A stretch of DNA of 64,000 nt from Gemmatimonadota bacterium. GTDB taxonomy: Bacteria > Gemmatimonadota > Gemmatimonadetes > Gemmatimonadales > GWC2-71-9. Numbering within the stretch: position 1 is the stretch's first letter; every line of letters starts with the position of its first letter. Below the pieces are notes generated by a model, which ran no database searches, was not told the origin of the DNA, and saw only the letters and a program-made list of their open reading frames with translations. The position numbers and the translations under genes were made by a program. Positions 1,531-59,890 of this stretch are shown piece after piece. The stretch spans positions 16,998 to 80,997 of the forward strand of contig QHUL01000056.1 of assembly GCA_003222115.1 (NCBI GenBank), written 5' to 3'.

Positions 1531-3896
1531 CGCCGTCCCTGGTGGTGCTGCTCGCGCTGCAGGTCGCCGCAACGCCGCTCGACGTCACGGCGCGCGTGGA
1601 TCGCGCTCGGGTCGTGCTCGGTGATGAGATCGGGCTCACCGTGCGGGCGCGCGCTCGCACGGCGGAGCCGGTCAGCTTGGAGCTGCCGCCGCTCGCCGGT
1701 TTCCTGGTCCTCAGCACCCATGAGGTCACCGATGTCAGCGTCGGGGGCCCGGGCGCGCCGGTCCGCACGACCGTGCGGGAGCTGCAGCTGCGCGCGACCA
1801 AGGTTGGCACGCTATTGATCGGCGCCGTGCACGCGCGGCAGGGCCGGGTGATCGTCGCGACCGACCCGATCGTGGTCACAGTCGACAGCGGGGCGGCGGG
1901 GGGGCCGCCCGCGCTCACACCGCTGGCGCGCGCCCTGGTCGACGCGGCGCCGCCCCCGGAGCGCACCGACCGGGTGGCGCTCACGGTCGTCGTGCCGACC
2001 GACACGGTGCTCGCGGGTCAGCAGCTCGACGTCGTGGCCACGGCCTGGTTCCCGCGCGAGCTCCGGAACCGGCTGCACCGCCCGCCCCAAGTCACCATCG
2101 AGACCCCGCAACGCGTGTGGGCGTACCCCGCCGCGCGCTCGAGCGACGTCGCGGCCTCGCGGCTGGTGCGCGGGTCCTGGCTGGACCTGTACGTCGCCCA
2201 TCAAGTGGTCTTCCCGCTCGCCGCGGGCCGGGTCGTGATCCCCCCCGCGTCGGTGGAGTTCGCCGTGCCCACGACCTTTTCCTTTTTCAGTCGGGAGGAG
2301 CGCTACGCGTTGCAGAGCGACTCGGTGACGATCGTCGTGCTGCCCCTGCCGGTGGAGGGGCGCCCGGCCGACGACCAGCGGGTGACGGGGCGGGGGCTCG
2401 TCCTCGCGCTGGACGTGCAGCCGGCCGACGCGCGCGTCGGGGAACCGCTCGAGGTGACGACCACGGTCGCCGGTGTCGGCAACGTGGCGCTATGGCCGGA
2501 GCCGGCGTTGCGCTGGCCGCCGGGGTTCCGCCCCTACCCGGCGGAGCCCGAGGCGCGGATCGACTGGCAGGGCGGCCGGATCTCGGGGAGCAAGGCGTTC
2601 CGCTATCTCGTGGTCCCGGACTCGGCGGGCACGTTCGTCCTGCCCGAGCTGCGCTACCCGTACTATGACATGGGCCGGGGCGGCTATACCGTGGCGGGAG
2701 CGGCACCGCGGACGCTCGTCGTTGCGCCGGGTGCCGAGCCGCGTGCGGCCCGCTCGCTGCCACCGCTCGCGCCCGTCGACGGTGAGGCGTGGGCGAGCGC
2801 GGTCGCCCGCGATCTCTTCCCCTGGGGCTGGGGCGCCCTCGTGTGCGCGCCGCCGCTCGCCGCGCTGTTGTGGCGCCGCCGGTCGCGCCCGCGCGGCGGG
2901 CCGGAGCCCGCGCCCGCGGTCGCGCCGCAGGTCACGCGGCTGGGACGGCTGGAGCGGGAATTCCACGTCGTGCTCGCGAGTCATGTCGCCGATCCCGTCG
3001 CCCGCGACGGTGACGGCCTGGCTCGCGCGCTGCGCGCGGCCGGCATCGAGAGCGCGGTCGCGGACCACATCATGCGGCTGCGCGACCGGCTGCGGGCCGC
3101 GCGCTACGGGCCGCGCGGCCTGGGCGACGCGGCGGAGCTGGCTGCCGAGATCGAGCAGGTGCTGGGGGTACTGGGGGCGGAGCCGCACGGCGGGCGGCGG
3201 GTCCGCCTGTTCTCGACGCTGTGCTGCGCGGCGCTGCTCGCGCCGCGCGGCAGCCTCGCCCAAGGGCCGAGCGCCGAAGCGCTGTATGCCGCGGGGGCGC
3301 TGCGGGCGGCGGCGGACTCGTTCGCCGCCCGGGCCGCGGCCGAACCCCGCACTGCTGCGCACTGGTACAACGTGGGCGCCACCCTGTACCGGGCCGGCGC
3401 GGACGGCAAGGCTGCCGCAGCGTGGGCCGTCGCGGCGCGCCTTGCCCCGCGCGACCGCATGATTCGACGCGCCCGCGAGCTCCTCCCGGCGCCGGACGCG
3501 ACGAGCGAGCGCCTGCTCGCGGTCGGCGTCGGCGCACCCGGTGAATGGGGCCTCGTGGCCGCGGCGTGCTGGGTCGGCTTTTGGGCGGCGCTGGCCCGGC
3601 GACGCCGCTCGCGCGCGTGGCTGCTCGGGCTCGCGGTGTGCGCCGCCGCGGCGGGAGCGCAGGGCGCGCGCGAGGCGCTGCGGCGCCAGCAGGCGCTCGC
3701 GGTCGTGGTGAGCCCGGCCACGCCGGTGCGGGTGGCCCCGTACGGCGGCGCCAGCGCCGTCGCCACCGTCGAGGCGGGTGCCGCGCTGCTCGTGGAGCGG
3801 CGCGACGGGCGCTGGCTCGAGGTGCGGCGGCCGGACGGCATCCACGGCTGGCTGCTCGAGCGCGAGGCGGTGCGGCTGCCGCAAGATCCCCTGTGA
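1527..3896 (+). CDS. BatD-like oxygen-tolerance protein continuous with a TPR + SH3 (BatE-like) C-terminal module
   Basis: GTG at 1527 overlaps the upstream stop (GTGA). N-terminal signal-like VTPSLVVLLALQVAA and a BatD-style repeated beta-rich body. The C-terminal part has TPR (AHWYNVGATLYRAG), TM helices and an SH3-like end (WLEVRRPDGIHGWLLE). No stop separates the two parts. Confidence 0.6.
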   Translation: MTPSLVVLLALQVAATPLDVTARVDRARVVLGDEIGLTVRARARTAEPVSLELPPLAGFLVLSTHEVTDVSVGGPGAPVRTTVRELQLRATKVGTLLIGAVHARQGRVIVATDPIVVTVDSGAAGGPPALTPLARALVDAAPPPERTDRVALTVVVPTDTVLAGQQLDVVATAWFPRELRNRLHRPPQVTIETPQRVWAYPAARSSDVAASRLVRGSWLDLYVAHQVVFPLAAGRVVIPPASVEFAVPTTFSFFSREERYALQSDSVTIVVLPLPVEGRPADDQRVTGRGLVLALDVQPADARVGEPLEVTTTVAGVGNVALWPEPALRWPPGFRPYPAEPEARIDWQGGRISGSKAFRYLVVPDSAGTFVLPELRYPYYDMGRGGYTVAGAAPRTLVVAPGAEPRAARSLPPLAPVDGEAWASAVARDLFPWGWGALVCAPPLAALLWRRRSRPRGGPEPAPAVAPQVTRLGRLEREFHVVLASHVADPVARDGDGLARALRAAGIESAVADHIMRLRDRLRAARYGPRGLGDAAELAAEIEQVLGVLGAEPHGGRRVRLFSTLCCAALLAPRGSLAQGPSAEALYAAGALRAAADSFAARAAAEPRTAAHWYNVGATLYRAGADGKAAAAWAVAARLAPRDRMIRRARELLPAPDATSERLLAVGVGAPGEWGLVAAACWVGFWAALARRRRSRAWLLGLAVCAAAAGAQGAREALRRQQALAVVVSPATPVRVAPYGGASAVATVEAGAALLVERRDGRWLEVRRPDGIHGWLLEREAVRLPQDPL

Positions 3897-5584
3897 CGAA
3901 GATCGCCGTGCTCGCGGCGCAGGTGGCCGACCAGATCGCCGCCGGCGAGGTGGTGGAGCGCCCGGCGTCCGTGGTGAAGGAGCTGGTCGAGAACGCACTC
4001 GACGCGGGCGCGCGCACCATCCGCGTCGGCATCGAGAACGGCGGCAAGACGTTGATCCGGGTGAGCGACGACGGCGAGGGGATGAGCCGGGAGGACGCCG
4101 AGCTCGCGCTGGCGCGCCATGCGACGAGCAAGATCCGCGGCGCGGCCGATCTGATCGGGGTCGGCACCTTCGGGTTCCGCGGAGAGGCGCTCCCGGCCAT
4201 CGCGTCGGTGTCGCGCTTCGAGCTCGAGACCTCGCCCGACGGCCGGAGCGCAACCCGAGTGCGGGTGGTGGGCGGCAAGGGCATGGCCGTGGAGGACGCG
4301 GTGCGCCAGCGCGGCACCACGGTGACGGTGCGCGCGCTGTTCTTCAACACGCCCGCGCGGCGGAAATTCCTGCGTGCCCAGCAGACCGAGACCCGGGCGG
4401 TGGTGGAGGCGTTGACCGTGCTCGCGCTCGCGCGCCCCGACGTGGCCTTCGCGCTCGAGAGCGACGACCGTGCGCTCCTCGACGTCGGGCCGGCGGCGCG
4501 ACCCATCGACCGCGTACACGAGCTGTGGGGGCGGGAGCTCGCCGACACGCTGCTCCCCATCGGCCACCGCGAGGGCCCGCTCGAGGTGCGGGGCTTCGCG
4601 CAGCGCCCCGCGCAGGCGAAGCCTGCGGGACGCAAAGGCTACGTGTTGGTGCGGGGACGCCCCATCCGCGATCCCTTCATCCTGCGCGCGGCGGAGGCGG
4701 GGTACCGTTCGACCATCGCGCCCGGCGACCGCCCGACGCTCATCCTGTTCCTGGACCTCCCGGGAGACGCGGTGGACGTCAACGTCCATCCCACCAAGCT
4801 CGAGGTGCGCTTCCGTGACAAGTTCTTCGTCGAACGGGTGGTCGAGGAGGCGGTGCGCGGGGCGCTCGGGCCACTCGCCGCGGCGTCCCCGCTAGGTGTG
4901 GGGGGTGAGGCGTCGGGTGTCGGGGGGCCCTGGGCCGGTCTCGGTGCCGTGATCCCCGGCGTGGCCGCCGCGGAGCTCTTTTCCCGAGAGTCCCTCACAC
5001 CTGACGCCCGACGCCTGACACCCCCGCTGCTTCAGGTGTTTGACACGTACATCGTGTTTCAGACGGACACCGCCGTCGCCATCGTGGATCAGCACTCGGC
5101 CCACGAGCGCGTGCTGTACGAGACCGTGATGCGCCAGCTCTCGGGCGACGGCGCGCCCGCGCAGCGCCTGCTACTGCCGCTGACGCTCGACTTCTCGCCC
5201 GCCGAGCTCGAGGCCGTGGACGCGCACGGGGAGCTGCTGCGGCGCGTCGGCTACGAGATCGAGCCGTTCTCGGGCCGCTCCGTCGTCGTTCACACCGCTC
5301 CCAACCCGCATCCGCGGTTCGACGCGACGCGCTGCCTGCAGGAGCTCGTGGCCGATCTCGCGGGCGGCCGCTTCGGCGGCTGGGCGAACCGGCTGGAGCG
5401 CTTCGCCGCCAGCTTCGCCTGCCGCGCCGCGATCAAGGCCGGCCAGCGGCTCGAGCCGGACGAGATGCGGGAGCTCGTCATCCGCGTCCTCGGCGCCACC
5501 CTACCGGCCCACGACGTGCACGGCCGGCCGACCATCGTGCAGCTGCCGAAGGACGAGTTGGAGCGGCGGTTTGGGAGAGCCTGA
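3893..5584 (+). CDS. mutL: DNA mismatch repair protein MutL
   Basis: GTG at 3893 overlaps the previous stop (GTGA). GHKL N-terminus IAAGEVVERPASVVKELVENALDAG and the C-terminal dimerisation region. Confidence 0.9.
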   Translation: MTKIAVLAAQVADQIAAGEVVERPASVVKELVENALDAGARTIRVGIENGGKTLIRVSDDGEGMSREDAELALARHATSKIRGAADLIGVGTFGFRGEALPAIASVSRFELETSPDGRSATRVRVVGGKGMAVEDAVRQRGTTVTVRALFFNTPARRKFLRAQQTETRAVVEALTVLALARPDVAFALESDDRALLDVGPAARPIDRVHELWGRELADTLLPIGHREGPLEVRGFAQRPAQAKPAGRKGYVLVRGRPIRDPFILRAAEAGYRSTIAPGDRPTLILFLDLPGDAVDVNVHPTKLEVRFRDKFFVERVVEEAVRGALGPLAAASPLGVGGEASGVGGPWAGLGAVIPGVAAAELFSRESLTPDARRLTPPLLQVFDTYIVFQTDTAVAIVDQHSAHERVLYETVMRQLSGDGAPAQRLLLPLTLDFSPAELEAVDAHGELLRRVGYEIEPFSGRSVVVHTAPNPHPRFDATRCLQELVADLAGGRFGGWANRLERFAASFACRAAIKAGQRLEPDEMRELVIRVLGATLPAHDVHGRPTIVQLPKDELERRFGRA

Positions 5585-6539
5585 CCGCCCCCTGGTACCG
5601 GTACTCGTCGGCCCCACCGGCGTCGGCAAGACCGCCGTCGCGGCGGCGCTCGGTGTCCGCGCGCCCATCACCGTGATCTCAGCCGATGCGCGGCAGGTAT
5701 ACCGCGGGCTCGACATCGGCACGGCAAAGCCGCCGCCCGAGCTGCAGGCGCGGGTTCCCCACTTCGGCCTCGACCTGATCGAGCCGGGGGAGCGCTACAG
5801 CGCGGGACGGTTCGCACGCGATGCTGCCGGTTGGCTGGGGAGCGTCCGGGCCGGCGGGCGCGAACCGGTCGTCGTCGGTGGAACCGGGTTCTACGTGCGA
5901 GCACTGGCGGAGGGGCTGTTCCGCGAGCCGCCGCTCGACGCGGCGCGGCGCGAGCGACTACGGATCTGGGGTGAGCGGCTGCCCGCCGCGCGACTCGCCC
6001 ATTGGGCGGCGCGGCTCGACCGGCGCTTCGCGGGCGGCGGACGCCAGCGCGCGGCGCGCGCGATCGAGGTGGCGCTGCTCAGCGGTCGGACGTTGAGCTG
6101 GTGGCAGCGCGAGGCGCGCGAGACCGGGATTATGCGACCGTGGTACATTCATCTGACGCTGCCGCGCGACGCGCTCCACCGCCGCATCGCGGAGCGGGTG
6201 GACCGGATGCTCGCGGCGGGCCTCGTCGCCGAGGTGCGGACCCTGCTCGCCCGCGGCGTCGCGGCGCACGCGCCCGGACTCGACGGCGTGGGCTATCGCG
6301 AGGTCGTGGCGACGCTCGAGCGGCGGCTGCCGGAAGCCCGGCTGCGGGACGCCGTCGTCGCGGCGACGCGGCGGTACGCGAAACGGCAGGAGACGTGGTT
6401 TCGACATCAACTGCGACGTCAGACGTCAGACGTCAGACATCAGTCGGACGACGTTTGGACTATCGACGCGACAGCCCCGCCCGAGGAGCTTGCCGCCATG
6501 ATCCATAGGCGCTGGTGCACCACGCGTGCTGACGTCTGA
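5571..6539 (+). CDS. miaA: tRNA dimethylallyltransferase MiaA, with a C-terminal tail encoded by a heptamer-repeat element
   Basis: P-loop GPTGVGKT, plus DIGTAKP and YAKRQETWF motifs. TTG start at 5571 overlaps the mutL end. Confidence 0.85.
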   Translation: MGEPDRPLVPVLVGPTGVGKTAVAAALGVRAPITVISADARQVYRGLDIGTAKPPPELQARVPHFGLDLIEPGERYSAGRFARDAAGWLGSVRAGGREPVVVGGTGFYVRALAEGLFREPPLDAARRERLRIWGERLPAARLAHWAARLDRRFAGGGRQRAARAIEVALLSGRTLSWWQREARETGIMRPWYIHLTLPRDALHRRIAERVDRMLAAGLVAEVRTLLARGVAAHAPGLDGVGYREVVATLERRLPEARLRDAVVAATRRYAKRQETWFRHQLRRQTSDVRHQSDDVWTIDATAPPEELAAMIHRRWCTTRADV

Positions 6540-6557
6540 TGTCTGACGTCTGAGGTC
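6415..6557. repeat. Inverted pair of tandem heptamer arrays (GACGTCA x4 / TGACGTC x4) enclosing the miaA 3' end
   Basis: Arm 1 at 6415-6443 is gacgtcagacgtcagacgtcagacatcag. Arm 2 at 6529-6557 is ctgacgtctgatgtctgacgtctgaggtc. In register they are 26/29 complementary. An 18-nt perfect core pairs 6426-6443 with 6536-6553. Confidence 0.85.
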
Positions 6558-6559
6558 TC

Positions 6560-7687
6560 ATGCGTATCGGCATCACCTGCTATCCGACCTACGGCGGCTC
6601 CGGAGCCGTCGCCACCGAGCTGGGGCTCGAGCTCGCGCGGCGCGGCCACGAGGTCCATTTCATCTCGTACGCCAGCCCGTTCCGGCTGCGGGGCGGGTTC
6701 GCCGAGCGCGTCACCTTCCACGAGGTCGTGACCGCCGACTATCCGCTGTTCGAGCACTCGCCCTACGCGCTCGCGCTGGCCGTCAAGCAGCACGAGGTCG
6801 CGCTGCGCGAGGAGCTCGAGCTGATGCACGTGCATTACGCCATCCCTCATGCCGCGACGGCCTGGCTCGCCAAGCAGATGCTCAAGGCGGAGCGCGACCT
6901 CAAGCTCGTCACCACGCTGCACGGCACCGACATCACGCTCGTGGGGCAGGATCCCTCGTACTTCACCATCACGAAGTTCTCGATCGAGCAGTCCGATCGG
7001 GTGACCGCCGTGTCGCAGTACCTGCGCGACGAGACCTATCGCGCCTTCGGGTGCACCGGCTGCGACGTCCAGGTGATCCCGAACTTCGTGTCGACCGCGG
7101 AGTACCATCCGGCCCGCGATGCGTCCTGCCGGCGCGCGCTGGCCCCTCCGGACCACAAGATCCTGACCCACGTCTCGAACTTCCGTCCCGTCAAGCGCGT
7201 GCGCGACGTGGTGCGCATCTTCGCCGGCGTGCGGAAGGTGCTGCCCGCCACGCTCGTGCTCGTAGGGGACGGGCCGGACCGCGACGCGGCGGAGCAGGAG
7301 ACGGACCGCCTGCGCCTTGGGGACGACGTCCGGTTCCTCGGCAAGGTGGATCAGGTGGCCGACGTGCTGCGCGGGAGCGACCTGTTCTTGCTTCCCTCCG
7401 AGACCGAGTCCTTCGGCCTGGCCGCCCTCGAGGCCATGGCCTGCGGCGTGCCGGTGATCGCGAGCGCCGTGGGGGGCCTCCCCGAGGTCGTCGTGAACGG
7501 GGAGACGGGCTACCTCGCACCGCCGGGAGCCGTCGACGAAATGATGGAGCGGGCGCTCGCCATCCTGCGGGACGGCCCGCTGCACGGCCGGCTCGGCGCG
7601 AGCGCCGCAGCGCGGGCGCGCGACTTCTCGACCGAGCGGATCGTCCCGCATTACGAGGCGCTCTACCGGGACGTGCTCGGTGAGTGA
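6560..7687 (+). CDS. bshA: N-acetyl-alpha-D-glucosaminyl L-malate synthase (bacillithiol biosynthesis glycosyltransferase BshA)
   Basis: The N-terminus [36 protein letters not shown], together with [24 protein letters not shown] and [11 protein letters not shown], matches the BshA pattern I know from Bacillus. Confidence 0.8.
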
Positions 7688-13243: not shown

Positions 13244-14201
13244 GCTCGGGTGGCTCCCGCTCGCGCTCTGCATTCCTGCGGTGCTCGCCGCCCAGGGTCG
13301 CGACTGGGAGTTCCACCGCGGCCGCTGGTACAACGGTAACCGCTCCGACAGCTACGAATTCCGCACCAGCGCCCGCTGGGGCGGGCCGTTCACGCACGGC
13401 TTCGGGGCGCAGGTGTTCCTCCACGATTCGCTGGGCCGCCGCCGCGCCTTCTACGGGCTGGGCTACGAGCTGCAGGCGTTCCGGGGCCGCCGCGCGCTCG
13501 GGCCGTACGCGCTCGCCGGCGTCGCGCTCGGCCTCTCCACCGACACCACCACTCAGGAGCTCGCCGCCCAGTGGAGCGTCGGCGGCGGCATCGAGTGGCG
13601 GCCGCTTTCGCGCTTCGCGCTCGGCGCCGAGGCGCGCTACCGGGTCGAAGACCGCGGGCCCCGCGGCTTCTGGCGTACCTCCGACGCCCGGACAGGCCTC
13701 AGCGGCGCGGTCGGGATCACGCTAAGGCTGGGGAGGGGGGAAGGGGGACGGGGGAGCGGTGGCTACGGCTCGCCGCCGCGGCCGCCTCCCGAGCCGCCGG
13801 CCACGATCACCGGGAGCGCGGCGGACATCGTGCGTACCGCGCTCGACGCCTTGGGAACCCCATATCTGTGGGGCGGCACGGCGGGAAACGGGTTCGACTG
13901 CTCCGGGCTCATCCAATACGCCTACGGCCAGCATGGCATCCGGCTGCCGCGGATGGGCCGCGCCCAGGCCTCGGCCGGGGCGGAGGTGGCCCCCGTGATC
14001 GACGCGCTGCGGCCCGGGGACGTCCTGCTCTTCTCGGCGGCGCCCGGATCCGGGGTGACCCACGTGGGCATGTACGTCGGCGAGCTCAAGTTCATCCACA
14101 GCTCGAGTAATGGAGTGAAGCTCTCGCTCCTCGAGGTCCACGATCCCGATGGTGCCTACTGGATCAATCGGTGGGTGGGAGCGAGGCGCATAATTCCATG
14201 A
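13227..14201 (+). CDS. NlpC/P60 (C40) cell-wall peptidase with an N-terminal beta-barrel-like domain and signal peptide
   Basis: C-terminal GTPYLWGGTAGNGFDCSGLIQYAY ... THVGMYVG catalytic Cys/His pattern. N-terminal LPLALCIPAVLAAQG. Confidence 0.8.
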   Translation: MQRPTELGWLPLALCIPAVLAAQGRDWEFHRGRWYNGNRSDSYEFRTSARWGGPFTHGFGAQVFLHDSLGRRRAFYGLGYELQAFRGRRALGPYALAGVALGLSTDTTTQELAAQWSVGGGIEWRPLSRFALGAEARYRVEDRGPRGFWRTSDARTGLSGAVGITLRLGRGEGGRGSGGYGSPPRPPPEPPATITGSAADIVRTALDALGTPYLWGGTAGNGFDCSGLIQYAYGQHGIRLPRMGRAQASAGAEVAPVIDALRPGDVLLFSAAPGSGVTHVGMYVGELKFIHSSSNGVKLSLLEVHDPDGAYWINRWVGARRIIP

Positions 14202-19160: not shown

Positions 19161-20330
19161 TCAGCGTGTCGCCCAGTCGTACAGGCGCGCGAGACAGGCG
19201 CGGGCAGCCTCGTCTACGGGCACGTCGCGCCGCGGCAGCACCCGTTCCGCGACCCTGAGGAATCCGTCCCGGCGCATCCGCTCCGGCCCGCTGCCGCCCC
19301 AGGCGAAGGGCGGCACGTACTTCGGAGGCCGCACCGCGTCGAACACGTTGGCTCCCGCGCCGATCACGGTGCCCGTGCCGAGCAGCGTGCCGATCGCCGT
19401 CTTGGCGTGATCGCCGATCAGGCTGCCCAGGAACTGCAGCCCGGTCTCGAGCGCGGTGCCGTTCACGTCCAGGCGCACGGGCCCGTAGGTGTTCTTCAGG
19501 TCGGAGGTCACGGTGCCGGCGCCGAGGTTCACCCAGCGGCCGATCACCGAGTGGCCGACGAACCCGTCGTGGGCCTTGTTGGCGTAGCCGAGGAACACGC
19601 AGGTCGAGACTTCGCCGCGGATTTTGCAATACGGACCGATCGCCGAGGCCCGAATCGGCCCGCCCAAGAGCTGCGTGTTGGCCCCCACCCACAGCGGTCC
19701 CTCGAGTCGCGTCCCCGACTTCACGGCGACGCCGCTCTCCAGCACGATCGGCCCCGCCGCCGTGTCGAACACCACGCCGGGCTCGACGGCGGTCGCGTGC
19801 AGCGCGAGCCAGGCCGGCTCGCCGATGACCGTGCTGCCGCGCGGGATCGCGTCGCCGCCCTCGAGCCGCGTCGCGAGCTCTGCGCCGAGCAATCGCTCGA
19901 GCGCCGGCACCAGGTCGAACACGCCGCGCAGCACGAGTCCCGCCACCTCGAGCGCGGGGCCCGCGTCGCTGGGTCGCGTCCAGGTGGAGCCCGGCCCGAC
20001 CACCCAGCCGACCGTGCGCCCCGCGTGCGTGAGCCGGATGTCGCCGGCCGGGAACGCCGGTGCGAGCCCGCGCGGGGCGAACGCCGACGCGCCGATCACC
20101 GCGGGGCCATCGACGGGACGCAGTGCCGTGACCACGGGGACGCCGGGCTCGCGAAATCCGGCGAGATGCGGCAGCGCGAAGATGGCCGTGGTCTCCGCAC
20201 CCACAAACGCCTCCCAGCTCTCGCGCACCAGCGCCGCGCCGACCCGTAGCTCCGACAGGGGCCGGATGCCGGCGAACGGCGCCCAGGCCGGCGTGGGCTC
20301 CGGATCGAGCAGGTGCAGGGTGTGCGTCAC
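19161..20330 (-). CDS. Sugar nucleotidyltransferase-like protein with a left-handed beta-helix (hexapeptide) C-terminal domain
   Basis: GTG at 20330 overlaps the manC stop (GTGA). Hexapeptide-like repeats (IGPYCKIRGEVSTCVFLGYANKAHDGFVGHSVIGRWVNLGAGT). Confidence 0.55.
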   Translation of the reverse strand: MTHTLHLLDPEPTPAWAPFAGIRPLSELRVGAALVRESWEAFVGAETTAIFALPHLAGFREPGVPVVTALRPVDGPAVIGASAFAPRGLAPAFPAGDIRLTHAGRTVGWVVGPGSTWTRPSDAGPALEVAGLVLRGVFDLVPALERLLGAELATRLEGGDAIPRGSTVIGEPAWLALHATAVEPGVVFDTAAGPIVLESGVAVKSGTRLEGPLWVGANTQLLGGPIRASAIGPYCKIRGEVSTCVFLGYANKAHDGFVGHSVIGRWVNLGAGTVTSDLKNTYGPVRLDVNGTALETGLQFLGSLIGDHAKTAIGTLLGTGTVIGAGANVFDAVRPPKYVPPFAWGGSGPERMRRDGFLRVAERVLPRRDVPVDEAARACLARLYDWATR

Positions 20331-33281: not shown

Positions 33282-34598
33282 ATGGCTCCGGCGTTCTGCG
33301 TGACCGGCGGGCGTCCGCTCAAGGGAACGATCCGCCCGGCGGGGAACAAGAACGCGGCCCTGCCCATCCTCGCGGCCACGCTGCTGGCCGATGCGCCCTG
33401 CCGCATTGATAACGTCCCCAGGATCGGTGACGTGGAGACGATGCTCGCGCTGCTCGCCCATCTGGGCGCGGAGGTGCGCTGGACCGGCGATCACGCGGTC
33501 GAGATCGATCCCGCGCACGCCGCACCGCGCGAGCTCGACCCTGCATTGTGCGCCCGCATCCGGGCCTCCATCCTGCTCGCCGGGCCGATGCTCGCCCGCT
33601 TCGGCCGCGTCGCCCTGCCGCCCCCGGGCGGCGACGTGATCGGGCGCCGGCGCGTGGACACCCACCTCCTCGCCTTGGAACAGATGGGCGCCGAGATCAC
33701 CGTGGGCGACAGCTACAAGTTCGAGGCACCGGCTCGGGGCCTGCGGCCGGCGGACATCTTCCTCGACGAGCCCAGCGTCACGGCCACCGAGAACGTCCTC
33801 ATGGCTGCGGCGGCGACGCCCGGGACCACCGTGCTGCGCAACGCCGCGTCCGAGCCCCACGTGCAGGACCTGGCGCGGTTTCTCACCGGGCTCGGCGCCC
33901 AAGTGGAAGGAATCGGCACCAACACGCTCACCGTGCATGGCGGCAAGCTGCGGGGGGCGCCGGGTGTCGTCGGGCCCGACCACATCGAGATCGGCTCGTT
34001 CATCGGGCTCGCGGCCGCGACGAACGGCGCCATCACGATCGACGGTGTGCGCGCCGAGGACTTGCGGGCTACGCTGCTGGCGTTCGACCGATTGGGCGTG
34101 CGTCCCCGCCTCGACGGCGCCCAGCTCGTCGTGGACGACAACCAGGAGCGGCGCATCCGCGCGGACCTGGGCGGCCACGTGCCGGAGCTCGAGGACGGGC
34201 CCTGGCCCCAGTTCCCCGCGGACCTGATATCGATCGCGATCGTCGTGGCCACGCAGTGCGAGGGGCTGTTGCTCGTCTTCGAGAAGCTGTTCGAATCGCG
34301 GCTCTTCTTCGTCGACAAGCTCATCGGCATGGGAGCGCGCATCGTGCTGTGCGATCCGCACCGCGCGGTCATCGCCGGGCCCTCGCCGCTGCACGGCCAG
34401 GTCGTGGACAGCCCCGACATCCGGGCTGGCATGGCGATGCTGCTCGCCGCGCTCGCCGCGCGCGGCGACTCGGTGATCCACAACATCGGGCAGATCGAGC
34501 GAGGGTACGAGCGCATCGACGAGCGGCTGCGCGCCCTGGGGGCGCAGATCGAGAGAATCGAGGACGGCGGTAAGGCGGCTGGGCGGTTAGGCGGATAG
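33282..34598 (+). CDS. murA: UDP-N-acetylglucosamine 1-carboxyvinyltransferase MurA, with a C-terminal tail encoded by an octamer-repeat element
   Basis: GTIRPAGNKNAALPILAATLLA and full-length EPSP/MurA-type body. The last roughly 11 codons (EDGGKAAGRLGG) lie in the repeat. Confidence 0.93.
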   Translation: MAPAFCVTGGRPLKGTIRPAGNKNAALPILAATLLADAPCRIDNVPRIGDVETMLALLAHLGAEVRWTGDHAVEIDPAHAAPRELDPALCARIRASILLAGPMLARFGRVALPPPGGDVIGRRRVDTHLLALEQMGAEITVGDSYKFEAPARGLRPADIFLDEPSVTATENVLMAAAATPGTTVLRNAASEPHVQDLARFLTGLGAQVEGIGTNTLTVHGGKLRGAPGVVGPDHIEIGSFIGLAAATNGAITIDGVRAEDLRATLLAFDRLGVRPRLDGAQLVVDDNQERRIRADLGGHVPELEDGPWPQFPADLISIAIVVATQCEGLLLVFEKLFESRLFFVDKLIGMGARIVLCDPHRAVIAGPSPLHGQVVDSPDIRAGMAMLLAALAARGDSVIHNIGQIERGYERIDERLRALGAQIERIEDGGKAAGRLGG

Positions 34599-34653
34599 GC
34601 GGTCAGAGTGCACGGCTCGACTAGCCGCCTAACCGCCTATCCGCCTAGTCTCC
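34566..34653. repeat. Inverted pair of tandem octamer arrays (GGCGGNNN x5 / TANCCGCC x3-4) spanning the murA-pgeF junction
   Basis: Arm 1 at 34566-34605 is ggcggtaa ggcggctg ggcggtta ggcggata ggcggtca. The 16-nt loop follows. Arm 2 at 34622-34645 is tagccgcc taaccgcc tatccgcc. Each paired octamer is 7/8 complementary. Confidence 0.85.
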
Positions 34654-34688
34654 GCGAGCAGCCCGTCGCCGACCCCGCCGTCCCCCGT

Positions 34689-35393
34689 ATGGAACTCGTC
34701 GACTGGGCGGAGCGCTACGGCCTCGTCGCGGGCATCACCACCCGCGAGCACGGCTTCAGCCTGGGCCTGTGGAGCGAGGAGAACGTGGGACAGGTGATGA
34801 CCCGCTGGCGGGCGTTCCGTGCCGCCTTCCACGCGGCGTTTCCCGTCACCGTGCTGAGCCACCAGATCCACGGCAGCGCGGTGAGGTGGCACGACGAGCT
34901 CTCGGACGGGTGGCTGGTCCTGGACGGCGTGGACGGGCACGCCACACGGGCGCGCGGCGTGCTGCTCACCGTGACCGTGGCCGACTGCGTCCCCGTCTAT
35001 CTCGCCGCGCCGACGACGGGCGCCGTGGCGCTGGTGCACGCGGGCTGGCGCGGCGCGTCGGCCGGGATCCTGGCGCGCGGCGTGGAGGTCTTGAAAGCGC
35101 GAGCGTTCGTGCGGGCCCAGGACATTATAATGCATTGTGGAGTTGGGATTTGCGGGCCGTGTTATGAAGTAGGTTCTGAAGTGCTGAGCCGCTTCACGGC
35201 TCGCACCGAGTCGGCGTCCGGCCACGTCGATCTGCGCGCGGTATTGGCGGGACAGGCAGGTGAGCTCGGGATTGAGCAGGTGACCGTCTCGCCGTGGTGC
35301 AGCGCGCACGACCGGGAGCACTTCTTCTCGCATCGGGCCTCGGATGGCCGCGACGGGCGGATGGTGGCGTACTTGGGCCTGCCCCGCGCTTGA
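34689..35393 (+). CDS. pgeF: Peptidoglycan editing factor PgeF / YfiH (DUF152 laccase-domain protein); alternative GTG start at 34608 inside the repeat element
   Basis: HQIHGSAV, DGHATRARGVLLTVTVADCVPV, VALVHAGWRG and CGPCYEVG motifs. Confidence 0.8.
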   Translation: MELVDWAERYGLVAGITTREHGFSLGLWSEENVGQVMTRWRAFRAAFHAAFPVTVLSHQIHGSAVRWHDELSDGWLVLDGVDGHATRARGVLLTVTVADCVPVYLAAPTTGAVALVHAGWRGASAGILARGVEVLKARAFVRAQDIIMHCGVGICGPCYEVGSEVLSRFTARTESASGHVDLRAVLAGQAGELGIEQVTVSPWCSAHDREHFFSHRASDGRDGRMVAYLGLPRA

Positions 35394-37633: not shown

Positions 37634-40231
<2,598 letters not shown>

Positions 40232-44273: not shown

Positions 44274-45301
44274 TGATCCGACTCTTCGCGAACGCGAACT
44301 ACGACTTCATCAAGTGGCGCCGCTGGGCCATCGGCCTCACCCTGGCCTTCATCGTCCCGGGGTACGCGCTCTTCTTCGTGCGCGGCCTCAATTACTCGAT
44401 CGAGTTCACGGGCGGCACGCTGATCCAGGTCACGGCCGCGCAGCCGGTCGGCACCGGCAAGATCCGCAGCGCGCTCGACGCCGCGGGGGTCCACGACGCC
44501 GAGATCCAGCAGTTCGGGGCAGCCAACGAGTACGTGATCCGGGCGCGGCTCGGCGCGGGCGGCGTGACCGCCGAAGGCAGCACGCAGGCTACGGCGCAGG
44601 CCGTGGATTCGGCGCTCGCGCGCGGCCTGGGTGCGGACCAGTACAGGATCGTCCGCACCGAGGCGGTCGGCCCGAAGGTGGGCCGCGAGCTGCAGGGCAA
44701 GGCGTTCCTCGCGATCTTTTTCTCGTTCATCGTCACGCTCGTCTACCTGGCGATCCGGTTCGAGTGGCGTTTCGGACTCGCCGCCGTGCTCGCGACGTTC
44801 CACGATATCCTCAGTACGATCGCCTTCATTCACTACCTGAATCTCGAGGTGAGCCTCGTCGTGGTGGGCGCGGTGTTGACCATGGTGGGGTACTCGCTCA
44901 ACGACACGATCATCATCTTCGACCGCGTGCGGGAGAACCTGCGCAAGTTCCGGCGGCAGAACCTGTACGAGATCCTGAACCTCTCGATCAACGAGACGCT
45001 GCCCCGCTCGGTGCTGACCCACGGCACGACGATGGCGACGACGCTCGCCATCGTGTTCCTCGCCGGCGAGGTGCTGCGGCCGTTCGCGCTCGTGATGACG
45101 TTCGCGATTTTCACGGGGACGTTCTCGTCCGTCTACATCGCGGCGCCGATCCTGATGTACATCGAGAAGCGCTGGCCGGGCGAGGACGCGCGCGGCGCCC
45201 GCCAGTTCCGTCCCGGAGCGGCCCCCGCCTCCCCCGCCTCCCCCGCCCCCGGCGCGCCGCCGCGGGCCCCACAGCCCCCGCAGCCCCAGACGATGCGGTA
45301 G
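44273..45301 (+). CDS. secF: Protein translocase subunit SecF, with a Pro/Ala-rich C-terminal tail
   Basis: TGATG 1-nt overlap with secD. GYSLNDTIIIFDRVREN motif. Confidence 0.92.
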   Translation: MIRLFANANYDFIKWRRWAIGLTLAFIVPGYALFFVRGLNYSIEFTGGTLIQVTAAQPVGTGKIRSALDAAGVHDAEIQQFGAANEYVIRARLGAGGVTAEGSTQATAQAVDSALARGLGADQYRIVRTEAVGPKVGRELQGKAFLAIFFSFIVTLVYLAIRFEWRFGLAAVLATFHDILSTIAFIHYLNLEVSLVVVGAVLTMVGYSLNDTIIIFDRVRENLRKFRRQNLYEILNLSINETLPRSVLTHGTTMATTLAIVFLAGEVLRPFALVMTFAIFTGTFSSVYIAAPILMYIEKRWPGEDARGARQFRPGAAPASPASPAPGAPPRAPQPPQPQTMR

Positions 45302-46072
45302 GTGCTGGTCGACGCCCACTGCCACCTCGGCGATGCGGCGTTCGACCGCGACCGGGACGCCGTGCTCGTGCGTGCCCGGGCCGCGGGCGTGGGGCACGTC
45401 GTGGTGATCGGCGGGACGGTGGAGGAGTCGGAGCGGGCGACCGCGCTCGCCCGCGGCGGGCCCGGTCTCTCGGCCACCGCCGGTGTGCATCCCCACGAGG
45501 CGCGGTCCTGGTCGCCGGAAGCGGCGTCCCGCCTGAAGGCGCTGCTCGCCCTACCTGAAGTGGTGGCTGTGGGCGAGACGGGGCTCGATTACCATTACGA
45601 CCATTCGCCGCGCCACGCGCAGCGACGTGCCTTCGAGGCGCAGCTCGCGCTCGGGGCTGAGCTCGGCAAGCCCGTCGTCGTGCACGCCCGCGAGGCGGAC
45701 GACGACGTCGCCGCGATGCTCGCCACGGCGCGTGCCGCGGTGGTGCTGCACTCGTTCAGCTCGGGACCCCAGGTCTTCGCAGCGGGGATGGGGATCGGCG
45801 CGTACTTTTCCTTCTCCGGCATGATCACGTTCAGGAACTGGGGTGCCGCGGTGGCCCTAACCGACTATCCGCCTGACCGCCTCTTGGTCGAGACGGACGC
45901 CCCGTACCTCGCGCCCGTGCCGCACCGCGGTATGCGCAACGAGCCTGCATTCGTGCGCGAGGTCGCGGTCGCGCTCGCCCGCATGCGCGGGGAGGCGCTC
46001 GACACCCTCGGGCAACGGACCACGGAAAACGCGCACCGGCTCTTCGGATCGCGCGTCGCCTCCACGCTCTAG
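45302..46072 (+). CDS. tatD: TatD-family metal-dependent hydrolase
   Basis: VDAHCHLGD, GETGLDYHY and LVETDAPYLAP motifs. Confidence 0.88.
   Translation: MLVDAHCHLGDAAFDRDRDAVLVRARAAGVGHVVVIGGTVEESERATALARGGPGLSATAGVHPHEARSWSPEAASRLKALLALPEVVAVGETGLDYHYDHSPRHAQRRAFEAQLALGAELGKPVVVHAREADDDVAAMLATARAAVVLHSFSSGPQVFAAGMGIGAYFSFSGMITFRNWGAAVALTDYPPDRLLVETDAPYLAPVPHRGMRNEPAFVREVAVALARMRGEALDTLGQRTTENAHRLFGSRVASTL
45857..45880 (+). repeat. Single arm of the octamer array (ctaaccga ctatccgc ctgaccgc) inside tatD coding sequence
   Basis: Three in-phase CTNNCCGN octamers matching arm 2 of the elements at 34622 and 59468. No inverted partner lies nearby. Confidence 0.35.
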
Positions 46073-57760: not shown

Positions 57761-57854
57761 GGGGGCGGATTGGGCCTGGTGGTCTGAGCGGTCTTCAAAA
57801 CCGTCTGGGGCTCGCAAGGGCCTCGGTGGGTTCGATTCCCACACGCTCCCGCCA
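57761..57854 (+). tRNA. selC: tRNA-Sec (anticodon UCA), CCA encoded
   Basis: Manual fold. The 8-position acceptor stem GGGGGCGG/ACGCUCCC has 1 GU and 1 terminal mismatch. The D-stem is 6 bp (UGGGCC/GGUCUG) with a 4-nt loop. The anticodon stem GCGGU/ACCGU carries the loop CUUCAAA. The variable arm is 21 nt. The T-arm is GUGGG-UUCGAUU-CCCAC, followed by discriminator G and CCA. Confidence 0.8.
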
Positions 57855-58511: not shown

Positions 58512-59405
58512 CTGATCTCCGCCCACGTCATCGTCAATCCCGCCGCGGGGCGCGGTGCCGGGGAGCGCGCGCTGGACCCCGTGGCACGGGCCTTTCGCCA
58601 GCAAGGGTGGGCCGTCGAAGTGACGCGGACCGGGGGCCCCGGAGAGGGCGCCGCGCTCGCCGCGGCCGCCGTCCGCAGCGGGGCGCAGCGCGTCGTGGCG
58701 GTGGGCGGTGACGGCACCGTCCACGAGGTGGCGAACGGCCTGCTGCGCTCGGGCGGCGCGGTCCCGCTCGGCGTGGTCCCGCTTGGCACCGGTAACGACT
58801 TCGCCAAGCTCGTCGGAGTCCACGGCTGCGCACCCGTCACCGCCGTGGGGCGGCTCGTCACGGCGGATGCCAGGGTGTTCGACGTGGGGCGGGTCGGCGA
58901 CGAGCGCTTCGTCAACAGCCTGGGCCTGGGCTTCGGACCCGCCGTCGTGCGGGCGCGCAACGCGATGCCGGGACTCCGGGGCTTCCTGTCGTATTTCGTG
59001 CCGGTGCTGCGCGCCTACGGCGGGTTCCGCCCGCCGCTCGTCGAGATCCGCTCGGCCGAGTTCCGGGAGCGGGGGTATGTGATGATGGTCGAGGTCTGTA
59101 ACGGGACGACCGCCGGCGGGGACTACCGGTTCGCGCCCGATGCCGACCCCGCGGACGGCCGGCTCGACGTGTGCCTGGTGCGCCGTGTGGGGCTGCCGCG
59201 GTTTCTGCTCGCAATCCCGCGGGTCATGCGCGGCACCCACGGCCGCATGCGCGAGGTGGCCTTGTTCCGCACGCGCCGCCTCATCGTACGATCCCCGGAG
59301 GCGCCGCTGCTGTTGCACCTCGACGGCGAGCTGCGCGAGCCGGGAACGAACGAAGTGACCGTGGCAGTGGAGCCGCGCAAACTCAAGGTGCTGGTGGCGC
59401 GATGA
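58512..59405 (+). CDS. Diacylglycerol kinase-family lipid kinase (YegS/DagK-like); apparent CTG start
   Basis: VIVNPAAGRG and VAVGGDGTVHEVANGL motifs. The NPxxG motif lies upstream of the first canonical start (GTG 58581). The in-frame candidates are CTG 58512 (LISAHVIVNP) or CTG 58479. Confidence 0.75.
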   Translation: MISAHVIVNPAAGRGAGERALDPVARAFRQQGWAVEVTRTGGPGEGAALAAAAVRSGAQRVVAVGGDGTVHEVANGLLRSGGAVPLGVVPLGTGNDFAKLVGVHGCAPVTAVGRLVTADARVFDVGRVGDERFVNSLGLGFGPAVVRARNAMPGLRGFLSYFVPVLRAYGGFRPPLVEIRSAEFRERGYVMMVEVCNGTTAGGDYRFAPDADPADGRLDVCLVRRVGLPRFLLAIPRVMRGTHGRMREVALFRTRRLIVRSPEAPLLLHLDGELREPGTNEVTVAVEPRKLKVLVAR

Positions 59406-59890
59406 GACAGCCGGTCAGGCGGTCAGGCGGTCAGGCGGTCAGGGGCCTCGCCTTGCTGACGCTCGTTCTATCCGCCTATCCGTCTAACCGCCTATCCGCC
59501 CAGGTTCCCACTGACACCGTCACTCCCCCCGCAGACACGTCCCATCGCTTGAAGCCATTCGCGGCCGCGTGGCGCTCGCTCCTGATACCCGGTTGGGGCC
59601 AGGCGGCGCTGGGGCGCGACGTCGCGGGCGCGGTGCTGGCGTCCTGGGAGGGCGTGACGATCATGATGACCGTCAAAGCGCGGCAGGAGCTACACTACCT
59701 CGAGCAGTCGGGCTCGGGGAACGTGCAGGCCAAGCGCCAGCAGGTCCAGGATTGGCTCGTCCTGTGGATCTTCAATCACCTGTTCGCGGGCGCCGAGGCG
59801 TTCGTGTCGGGCCACCTCCAGGACTTCCCCAAGGAGCTGCACGTCCAGCCCCTCCCCGGCGGGATCGGAGTCAGCATCCCGATTCCGTGA
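59402..59890 (+). CDS. Hypothetical secreted or membrane protein whose N-terminal signal region is encoded by an octamer-repeat element
   Basis: ATGA overlap with the kinase gene. MRQPVRRSGGQAVRGLALLTLVLSAYPSNRLSAQ, with LIPGWGQ later in the protein. Confidence 0.5.
   Translation: MRQPVRRSGGQAVRGLALLTLVLSAYPSNRLSAQVPTDTVTPPADTSHRLKPFAAAWRSLLIPGWGQAALGRDVAGAVLASWEGVTIMMTVKARQELHYLEQSGSGNVQAKRQQVQDWLVLWIFNHLFAGAEAFVSGHLQDFPKELHVQPLPGGIGVSIPIP
59411..59499. repeat. Inverted pair of tandem octamer arrays (GCGGTCAG x4 / CTAWCCGY x4)
   Basis: Arm 1 at 59411-59442 is ccggtcag gcggtcag gcggtcag gcggtcag. A 25-nt spacer follows. Arm 2 at 59468-59499 is ctatccgc ctatccgt ctaaccgc ctatccgc. Confidence 0.85.

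Follow-up and report, generated by a model that had tools for sequence, protein, structure and literature searches.

Arrays of tandem heptamers or octamers have been known for decades from the gene junctions of bacteria (cyanobacteria, Xanthomonas, Geobacter, Beggiatoa), without an accepted mechanism. Here, we describe inverted pairs of such arrays in a 64,000-nt stretch of a Gemmatimonadales genome (GWC2-71-9; contig QHUL01000056.1 of assembly GCA_003222115.1, positions 16,998–80,997, forward strand), hereafter the window, and in its relatives. Each pair, or module, consists of a tandem arm, a spacer and a complementary arm. The closest precedent is provided by the GGGAATC heptamer arrays of Xanthomonas (GGGGAYT in Nostoc), which form 70–75 convergent inverted pairs per genome with a bias to ~four units, lie between co-oriented open reading frames (ORFs), within 50 bp after a sense stop or before an antisense start, and keep their site and type (single or pair) between species (PMC4692102). 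Geobacter metallireducens carries four tandem octamers (GTTGCTYN) and five heptamers (MTYCTGA), both kinds in pairs on opposite strands, and four copies of GGGACCG (PMC2700814). Short tandem heptamers also occur in Beggiatoaceae (TAACTGA; PMC4679880) and as the recF/recO heptamers of Nostoc (bioRxiv 10.1101/2022.06.06.494920). What is new here is the lineage, the octamer and occasional 9-mer units, their routine in-frame translation into essential proteins, the variety of unit classes that a single orthologous site can carry, with arm co-variation shown formally, and the sharp divergence islands that the modules form. Our literature search found no description of such pairs for Gemmatimonadota; the original prediction, which did not recognise a described element, was only partly right, similar pairs having been published in Xanthomonas and Geobacter.

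The window has a G+C content of 72% and matches soil-metagenome contigs of a Gemmatimonadales bacterium. The three inverted 7–8-mer pairs predicted at its gene junctions (sites A–C) were present and shared one architecture, and a fourth pair was found in the linker of MutL. Their parts are as follows.

Site A, left arm: 6412–6443, + strand; GACGTCA ×4.1, translated in frame into RRQTSDVRHQ, an internal loop of MiaA flanked by TWFRHQLR and VWTIDAT, both conserved.
Site A, spacer: 6444–6528, + strand; native MiaA C-terminal segment VWTIDAT..EELAAMIHRRW, including the C-terminal helix, which array-less orthologues also have.
Site A, right arm: 6529–6560, + strand; CTGACGT ×4.3, coding for the MiaA tail ..TTRADV* with the stop TGA (6537–6539) inside it, and reaching the bshA ATG (6560).
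Site B, left arm: 34566–34606, + strand; five G-rich octamers (GGCGGNNN) coding for the MurA tail GGKAAGRLGG, with the MurA stop TAG (34596–34598) within the fourth unit.
Site B, loop: 34607–34620, + strand; holds GTG 34608, the pgeF start according to gene callers.
Site B, right arm: 34621–34647, + strand; C-rich CTARCCGC ×3.4, the complement of the left arm, read as the PgeF N-terminal extension ..SRLTAYPPS..
Site C, left arm: 59408–59443, + strand; CAGGCGGT ×4.5, coding for the positively charged n-region PVRRSGGQAVRG of a DUF5683-like protein (ATG 59402).
Site C, spacer: 59444–59467, + strand; hydrophobic core LALLTLVL of the predicted signal peptide.
Site C, right arm: 59468–59500, + strand; CTATCCGC ×4.1, coding for LSAYPSNRLSA, right before the conserved ..RLSAQ.
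MutL-linker pair, left arm: ~4894–4927, + strand; heptamers GGYGTCR, G-rich, lying in frame within the linker between the domains (about residues 333–380).
MutL-linker pair, right arm: ~4997–5027, + strand; heptamers CCYGACR, C-rich and complementary to the left arm.

At site A, where conserved MiaA residues KRQETWFRHQLR precede the left arm and VWTIDAT follows the loop, the arms were 32 nt long and 88% complementary around an 85-nt spacer. Those of site B measured 29 nt at 86% complementarity with a 16-nt spacer, or 19 nt at 95% in a shifted register. The MutL-linker pair falls where the Pfam domains of the protein stop (residue 325) and restart (residue 380), and its spacer belongs to the linker as well. 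Delimited more tightly, the arrays of site A span 6415–6443 and 6529–6558, and the MutL-linker pair spans 4900–4924 and 5000–5024. Unit and arm sequences differ among the four sites (GACGTCA, GGYGTCR, GGCGGNNA), and the octamer GGCGGNNA is shared by sites B and C and turns up in numerous genomes of Gemmatimonadota.

These arrays exceeded chance expectation. The pattern GGCGGN3GGCGGN3GGCGG, with at most one mismatch, had 10 matches in the window against 0.62 expected, a number reached in 0/100 shuffles, and arrays of period 7 (3 versus 0.25 per shuffle) and period 8 (2 versus 0.05) were enriched 12-fold and 40-fold, respectively. The long imperfect hairpins that had been proposed were supported by predicted single-strand folds of −57.2 kcal/mol (z = −4.8) at site B, −74.3 kcal/mol (z = −4.2) at site A, −86.1 kcal/mol (z = −4.0) at the MutL-linker pair and −47.9 kcal/mol (z = −2.3) at site C.

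Like the Xanthomonas arrays, the modules are built of tandem 7-nt units, about four per array (4.1 and 4.3 at site A; a median MutL arm of 31 nt), with 8-nt units at sites B and C; they are also convergent, G-rich on the plus and then on the minus strand, and their arms lie at stop codons (counts below). However, whereas Xanthomonas has one genome-wide unit capable of forming a G-quadruplex (G4), units here vary by site and lineage and some have no G-tracts; 8-mers and, rarely, 9-mers occur, and translation runs through many of the arms. Neither co-variation of the arms nor divergence islands, both found here, feature in the Xanthomonas report. The Geobacter classes are similar in having four to five tandem octamers or heptamers on opposite strands at variable distance, some of them intragenic, but each has one conserved consensus, read as regulator sites, with insertion sequences at fixed distances and no co-variation among orthologues described. 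Cyanobacterial and Beggiatoaceae heptamers likewise cluster beside start codons and at gene junctions, and are suspected of acting post-transcriptionally. They differ in being mostly direct arrays without an inverted partner, AT-richer and of one unit per family. Among the cyanobacterial examples are the STRR heptamers, reportedly described by Mazel et al. in 1990.

The stable stem-loops predicted here just after stop codons inside operons also recall the repetitive extragenic palindromes (REPs) and bacterial interspersed mosaic elements (BIMEs) of E. coli. REPs shield upstream mRNA from 3' exonucleases, and those within ~15 nt of a stop are said, by Liang, Rudd and Deutscher in 2015, to stall ribosomes. 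As defined in PMC3733652, REPs are 20–40-nt palindromes with a conserved consensus, a GTAG/CGTC head and a link to REP-associated tyrosine transposases (RAYT). Unlike these extragenic sequences, the arms here are tandem arrays with no shared consensus, separated by long native spacers and often translated. Palindromic repeats read in frame within conserved proteins are also known from Rickettsia, whose Rickettsia palindromic elements (RPEs) reportedly appear as extra peptide segments (Ogata et al., 2000). RPEs are 100–150-bp mobile elements that share a family consensus and insert as a single block, unlike the modules, in which two separate arms stand around native codons.

Comparison of orthologues showed that, at four sites (the miaA 3' end, the MutL linker, murA/pgeF and the signal peptide), the unit changes by lineage while the two arms stay complementary. 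This was clearest at miaA, for which 120 MiaA orthologues (71–95% identity) and 80 orthologous DNA loci were analysed. The MiaA loop and tail fell into discrete classes, each corresponding to one heptamer plus its complement (loop ... tail).

GACGTCA / TGACGTC: RQTSDVRHQ ... SDV*
CAGCCGT / ACGGCTG: RQPSAVSRQ ... ADG*
CAGTCGT: HQSSVVSHQ ... ADD*
GTCCGTY: HPSSVIRHP ... TDDG..
GGGAAAC / GTTTCCC: GNGKGDTGN ... FPVSRVPSP
Further classes: GGGAGAC, GGGATGC, GGGGGAC, GGGGAGC, GGGAGYC, GGGAAGA and CGCCGTG

Complementarity between a locus's own arms was clear in 38/76 scorable loci, all 38 of which belong to the clade whose core identity to the window is 0.71 or higher. Own left and right arms scored 18.0 versus 8.0 for arms taken from different loci. 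RNAalifold analysis of 37 miaA modules gave 12 consensus pairs, with compensatory changes in 12/12 (e.g. CG:15 / GC:15; GC:19 / CG:16), the kind of change by which conserved structured RNA is recognised. Paired cells made up 88.8% of the stem compared to 58.3% in shuffles (0/500 as high), and the covariation score of 0.692 fell to 0.196 on shuffling and to ≤0.23 when partners were slid by 1–3 columns. The module was absent from three miaA loci (L156, L158, L196; loci of relatives are numbered in this way) without other visible change.

Two further miaA loci are of interest in their own right. At the miaA 3' end of L169 (WNFK01186483.1), a right-arm array stands alone (tail ..TTHDAPRTTHDS, CGCACGA-type units) and the MiaA loop has no left arm; this one-armed state may be an intermediate of module gain or loss. 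In L178 (Ga0055489_10007787), just past the miaA core, C-rich CGCTATC comes first and G-rich GATAGCC second, both read as a long MiaA tail, which makes this locus the one clear exception to the G-rich-first order.

The MutL linker held 33 distinct modules with a median arm of 31 nt and a median spacer of 54 nt, built of GGGGCTC, GGGACTC, GGTGTCG, GGGGTCR, GGTGCTA, GGGGCCT, GCCGTCA, GGTGYCT or GGTAYCC. MurA tails among orthologues included GGKAAGRLGG, GGGQAVGRSGGQ, GQADRRIGG and GGKGGKGGTGGKE, with right arms complementary in DNA; about half of the murA/pgeF orthologues were array-free, in which case MurA ends ..IERRDDGR* and murA and pgeF overlap, and the module was missing from L209 with nothing else visibly changed. 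At the same junction in L208 (11333–11377), the right arm is a 9-mer array, CTGCCGCCC ×5, matched by a less regular left arm; therefore unit length, and not just sequence, can change at an orthologous site. For site C, 120 orthologues were compared as protein sequences, and N-termini such as RRSGGQAV...LTACPPDRLTAQ, RRLGGWTV...LTVYPSNRLSAQ, RRIGGWAV...LSAYPPIRLSAQ and RTVGTWE...FPTFQLSAQ were found in orthologues down to 57% identity. Overall, module position was kept at the four sites down to about 57–70% protein identity. MiaA and MurA tails vary by lineage, array-less MurA ends as above and array-less MiaA keeps the native spacer segment.

The modules also formed islands in otherwise near-identical genomes. 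The MiaA cores of the window, L126 and L127 are 90–96% identical, yet the three loci carry three unit classes, each matching lineages at ~0.71–0.81 core identity, such that unit class departs from the gene tree. Over 4.1 kb the window and L126 were 92–98% identical save for two sharp dips exactly at both modules, spacers included: window 4832–5040 (MutL module, down to 42%) and 6392–6570 (miaA module, 62–67%). Among the window, L126 and L127, miaA spacer identity was 0.62–0.64 compared to 0.91–0.96 in the flanks. The L126 spacer was 0.80 identical to that of L135 (flanks 0.76), and the L127 spacer 0.76–0.79 identical to those of L132, L140 and L147 (flanks ~0.78). Arm similarity followed spacer identity (rho 0.26, Mantel 0/999) more than core identity (rho 0.14). 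The modules are thus old allelic cassettes within far more similar flanks, and they appear to have been exchanged among lineages by recombination in highly conserved flanking codons, including KRQETWFRNQLR. Faster mutation inside modules was disfavoured as the cause of the islands, as the L126 and L127 modules were no more diverged from their distant look-alikes than the genome background.

At the strain level, unit number was the same in all 6 contigs covering site A and all 10 covering site B, which differ by 0–50 SNPs (single-nucleotide polymorphisms), contrary to the slipped-strand length variation suggested originally. The only arm polymorphism in the 10 site B contigs was 34581 G->A, which changes Gly to Arg in the MurA tail and a G·U to an A-U pair in the predicted stem. 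Sense-strand stem mismatches showed no wobble bias, G·U and A·C numbering 32 versus 39 at miaA and 46 versus 49 at MutL, which points to homogenisation at the DNA level.

We further investigated the spread and placement of the arrays by scanning one genome per species for three copies of GGCGGNNA, which gave at least 119 matching stretches. In agreement with the idea of a widespread element, arrays occurred in many relatives; Gemmatimonadota accounted for 59 of the 119 matches listed. Among these listed matches, an inverted partner lay within 150 nt in 14 (12 Gemmatimonadota, 2 Thermomicrobiales), the G-rich arm came first in 14/14 octamer pairs and never in the reverse order, and actinomycete matches were single long arrays. 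The same order was seen in 28/33 MutL modules and in every G-rich class at miaA. Among 13 independent pairs that could be evaluated, 10 had a long ORF (168–941 codons) with high G+C at third codon positions ending 0–8 nt outside the sense-G-rich arm. Where genes converge, stop codons abut the pair at both ends. Abutting stops include TAG followed by GCGGCAAGGCGG and TGA followed by GGCGGTAAGGCGG. Within the window, the left arm of site C begins 3 nt past the kinase stop TGA (59403–59405), the single array at 13730 begins 5 nt past a stop, and the MurA stop is inside the arm. Pairs were also observed in a second phylum: two Thermomicrobiales (Chloroflexota) metagenome-assembled genomes (MAGs) carry convergent GGCGGNNA pairs, G-rich first and abutting stops (L047 3799–3893; L105 3511–3625).

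Gene calling in independent assemblies supported the proposal that ribosomes read through the arrays. MiaA was called at 322 aa across both site A arms, MurA ended within the left arm of site B, at 34598, in 10 assemblies, PgeF was called from GTG 34608 (261 aa) through the right arm and the site C protein from ATG 59402. Past the right arm of site B, orthologues keep the PgeF segment LRExPxADxAVPRMEL with synonymous differences, and therefore pgeF translation must start upstream of it. Arms lie in frame within MiaA, MutL, MurA, PgeF and the DUF5683-like protein, and are thus not extragenic as REPs are; the segments they occupy are disordered or terminal. The proposal that arrays are translated into protein termini held for the gene calls at termini, loops and signal regions, but the left arm of site A codes for an internal loop ~30 residues before the MiaA C-terminus. 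As 7- and 8-mers run through all frames, a unit containing TAA, TAG or TGA stops any frame within three units, which explains how arms supply new stops and new termini.

Taken together, we give about half of our belief to the reading that the modules are convergent inverted pairs of short tandem arrays ('twin-array stem-loops') and not transposed copies of one element; our confidence is high in its structural and evolutionary description and low in its account of cellular function. A module comprises two arms, the first G-rich and the second C-rich, around a native spacer, at a fixed position where ~30 extra bases per arm are tolerated, mostly directly 3' of a stop and otherwise in tails, loops, linkers and signal-peptide flanks, where the arms are simply translated. 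Complementarity would be kept mainly by concerted evolution of the DNA, in which replication slippage may even out units within an arm and hairpin-templated template switching or gene conversion may copy one arm onto the other. Template switching is known to homogenise and extend the arms of imperfect inverted repeats (PMC7202029, PMC13100816). Homologous recombination between conserved flanking codons could move entire modules from lineage to lineage. Once transcribed, the arms would form a 25–35-bp stem whose 5' base may fall within the footprint of the terminating ribosome. Such stems could act like REP-type post-stop stem-loops, protecting or processing mRNA at operon junctions, and could tie access to the next start codon to termination of the gene before it. 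At site B this downstream start is in the loop; at site A it is found where the right arm ends, and at site C it immediately precedes the left arm. By analogy with REPs, a post-stop stem-loop function of this type is probable, whereas strong selection on every RNA base pair is less likely. It may be speculated that the G-rich-first order keeps Rho from meeting a periodic C-rich RNA whose partner is yet to be transcribed.

What is conserved in the modules is the complementarity of the arms, the G-rich-first order, the arm length of about four units and the abutment on stops, not any particular sequence or G-tracts, and this argues against readings based on G-quadruplexes or specific binders. 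The arms stand at two separate permissive points around native codons, which is incompatible with block insertion of a miniature inverted-repeat transposable element (MITE), REP or RPE. Several observations nevertheless weigh against our account. The post-stop rule is not universal: the MutL-linker pair is outside gene junctions, and 120 nt separate the left arm at miaA from the stop that follows it. The fold at site C, the weakest, is just modestly beyond shuffles. The missing G·U bias speaks against strong selection for RNA pairing, and the stems could be functionally neutral. The sharp divergence islands could also reflect ancient balanced alleles. Template switching in the modules is deduced, and slippage or template switching alone leaves the G-rich-first preference unexplained. 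Finally, every functional step is reasoned from sequence.

The foremost rival, which we regard as unlikely but keep alive owing to the missing wobble bias, is that the modules are a neutral by-product of mutation: slippage and template switching would make twin arrays anywhere, and purifying selection would spare those in harmless places, with no function involved. Consistent with this, arms are just ~85% complementary with many non-wobble mismatches, modules occupy disordered or terminal protein segments, and the module-free orthologues at miaA (L156, L158, L196) and murA/pgeF (L209) show no other visible change. However, neutrality fits poorly with a position held at four sites down to 57–70% protein identity, with abutment on stops within 0–8 nt in place of a scatter over intergenic space, with the consistent G-rich-first order and with a similar arm length of ~four units, as in Xanthomonas (PMC4692102). 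Somewhat less probable still is that the tandem build of the arms is itself functional, as a register-shifting switch of translation coupling or polarity. As the arms share one unit, the stem could re-pair shifted by one unit; a ribosome terminating at the abutting stop would open the first one or two units of the G-rich arm; the helix would then slip, freeing the far end of the C-rich arm beside the downstream start, while a closed stem would keep the periodic C-rich arm hidden from Rho. If true, this would be a new kind of switch, genome-wide in Gemmatimonadales and perhaps in Xanthomonas, tuned by hairpin-templated concerted evolution, and its modules would continuously yield new protein tails, loops and signal-peptide flanks.

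The remaining explanations account for single features of the modules. Binding sites for a sequence-specific protein (a global regulator or RNA-binding protein) would suit the regular 7–8-nt period, the ~four units per arm, the position near starts and stops and the recurrence of GGCGGNNA at two sites of the window (B and C) and in numerous Gemmatimonadota genomes, and have been proposed for the tandem heptamers and octamers of Geobacter and Nostoc (PMC2700814, PMC4679880, bioRxiv 10.1101/2022.06.06.494920). We consider this improbable because the unit changes wholly between sites of one genome and, at miaA, among relatives with 90–96% identical cores; an 8-bp period would also put sites on differing helix faces. 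It is less probable again that the G-rich arm is the functional element as a DNA or RNA G4, as was proposed for Xanthomonas. Many miaA and MutL classes are indeed of the form GGGNNNN (GGGAAAC, GGGAGAC, GGGATGC, GGGGCTC) at ~four units, and their sense-strand placement after stops agrees with PMC4692102, but G-tract-free classes occupy the same orthologous site (GACGTCA, CAGCCGT, CAGTCGT, GTCCGTY, CGCCGTG), so this reading cannot be general here; GGCGGNNA octamers give G2 tracts only, and complementarity, not G-tracts, is conserved across classes. A mobile family of REP/BIME or MITE type inserted at junctions, the dispersed element of the original prediction, is largely refuted and very improbable. 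In its favour are the palindromic architecture repeated at several junctions of one window, the lack of the module in some orthologues and the in-frame translation, which is reportedly also a feature of RPEs. However, the spacers are native conserved coding sequence, the two arms stand at separate points, positions are orthologous across deep divergence, and neither a common consensus, terminal inverted repeats with target duplication, a GTAG/CGTC head nor an Rfam match was found at the sites. With regard to MITEs in particular, no flanking direct duplication was seen at sites A–C, and with regard to REP/BIME the units differ by site in place of a 20–40-nt palindrome consensus. The least probable candidate is a set of contingency loci, at which slipped-strand unit changes would switch frames or vary termini from cell to cell; units of 7 or 8 nt in or beside coding sequence and arm lengths that vary between divergent lineages are as expected, but unit number was constant in the 6 site A and 10 site B strain-level contigs despite SNPs elsewhere, and arms of 3–5 imperfect units are shorter than typical phase-variable repeats. 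Telomerase-like 3'-end addition at breaks, which would explain the G-rich-first order, was set aside because the spacer is native and site-specific units would need many templates. Intrinsic termination, another consequence once suggested, was rejected, with 0 terminator-like sites in 34300–34900 and no T-run after any arm at sites A–C. A known RNA family was excluded for the array sites by the Rfam scan of the window, which matched no family there.

The many units found at the same orthologous sites reveal what is conserved in a class of arrays that has long resisted explanation, and make the combination of stem-loop and concerted evolution directly testable. They also show essential proteins (MiaA, MutL, MurA, a signal peptide) taking up non-triplet repeats, which gives sharply bounded hypervariable islands in near-identical genomes. 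Such islands bear on strain typing, on gene calling in high-GC MAGs and on the origin of new protein termini.

Two further array-like features of the window were considered alongside the pairs.

Single G-rich heptamer array: 13730–13755, + strand; GGGGANG ×3.7, beginning 5 nt past the stop TAA (13723–13725); a complementary partner was looked for and none was found.
tatD 'lone arm': 45857–45881, + strand; conserved TatD motif ..YPPDRLLVETDAP / ..PPDRLLVETDAP, PxDRLLVETDAP, judged to be outside the class.

The second of these had been put forward as a three-unit lone arm of the same family; the motif aligned to solved TatD structures without an insertion, and its occurrence is at the level of the ~0.6 chance matches expected. 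Just before tatD, the 3' end of an ORF ending at 45301 carries a C-rich 9-mer array, CCCCCGCCT (45221–45287, + strand; 7.6 copies, 74% match), whose triplet-multiple period suggests a Pro-rich tail and not a member of the 7/8-mer class. Single G-rich heptamer arrays were also present in L206, where GGGGAAG ×3.6 (3508–3532) and ×2.7 (19183–19201) fall in UvrD-like helicase and FAD synthetase genes and no inverted partner was found for either. A 9/18-mer array, GCGCAAGAAGGGGAAGAA, in the N-terminal region of IF2 (window 38269–38305; near 15000 in L206–L209) is kept in all relatives and is an in-frame Lys/Arg-rich low-complexity coding repeat outside this class. Finally, the sole Rfam match in the window was a tRNA-Sec at 57761–57850 (+ strand; RF01852; 79.1 bits, gathering score 47), which lies ~1.5 kb before site C.

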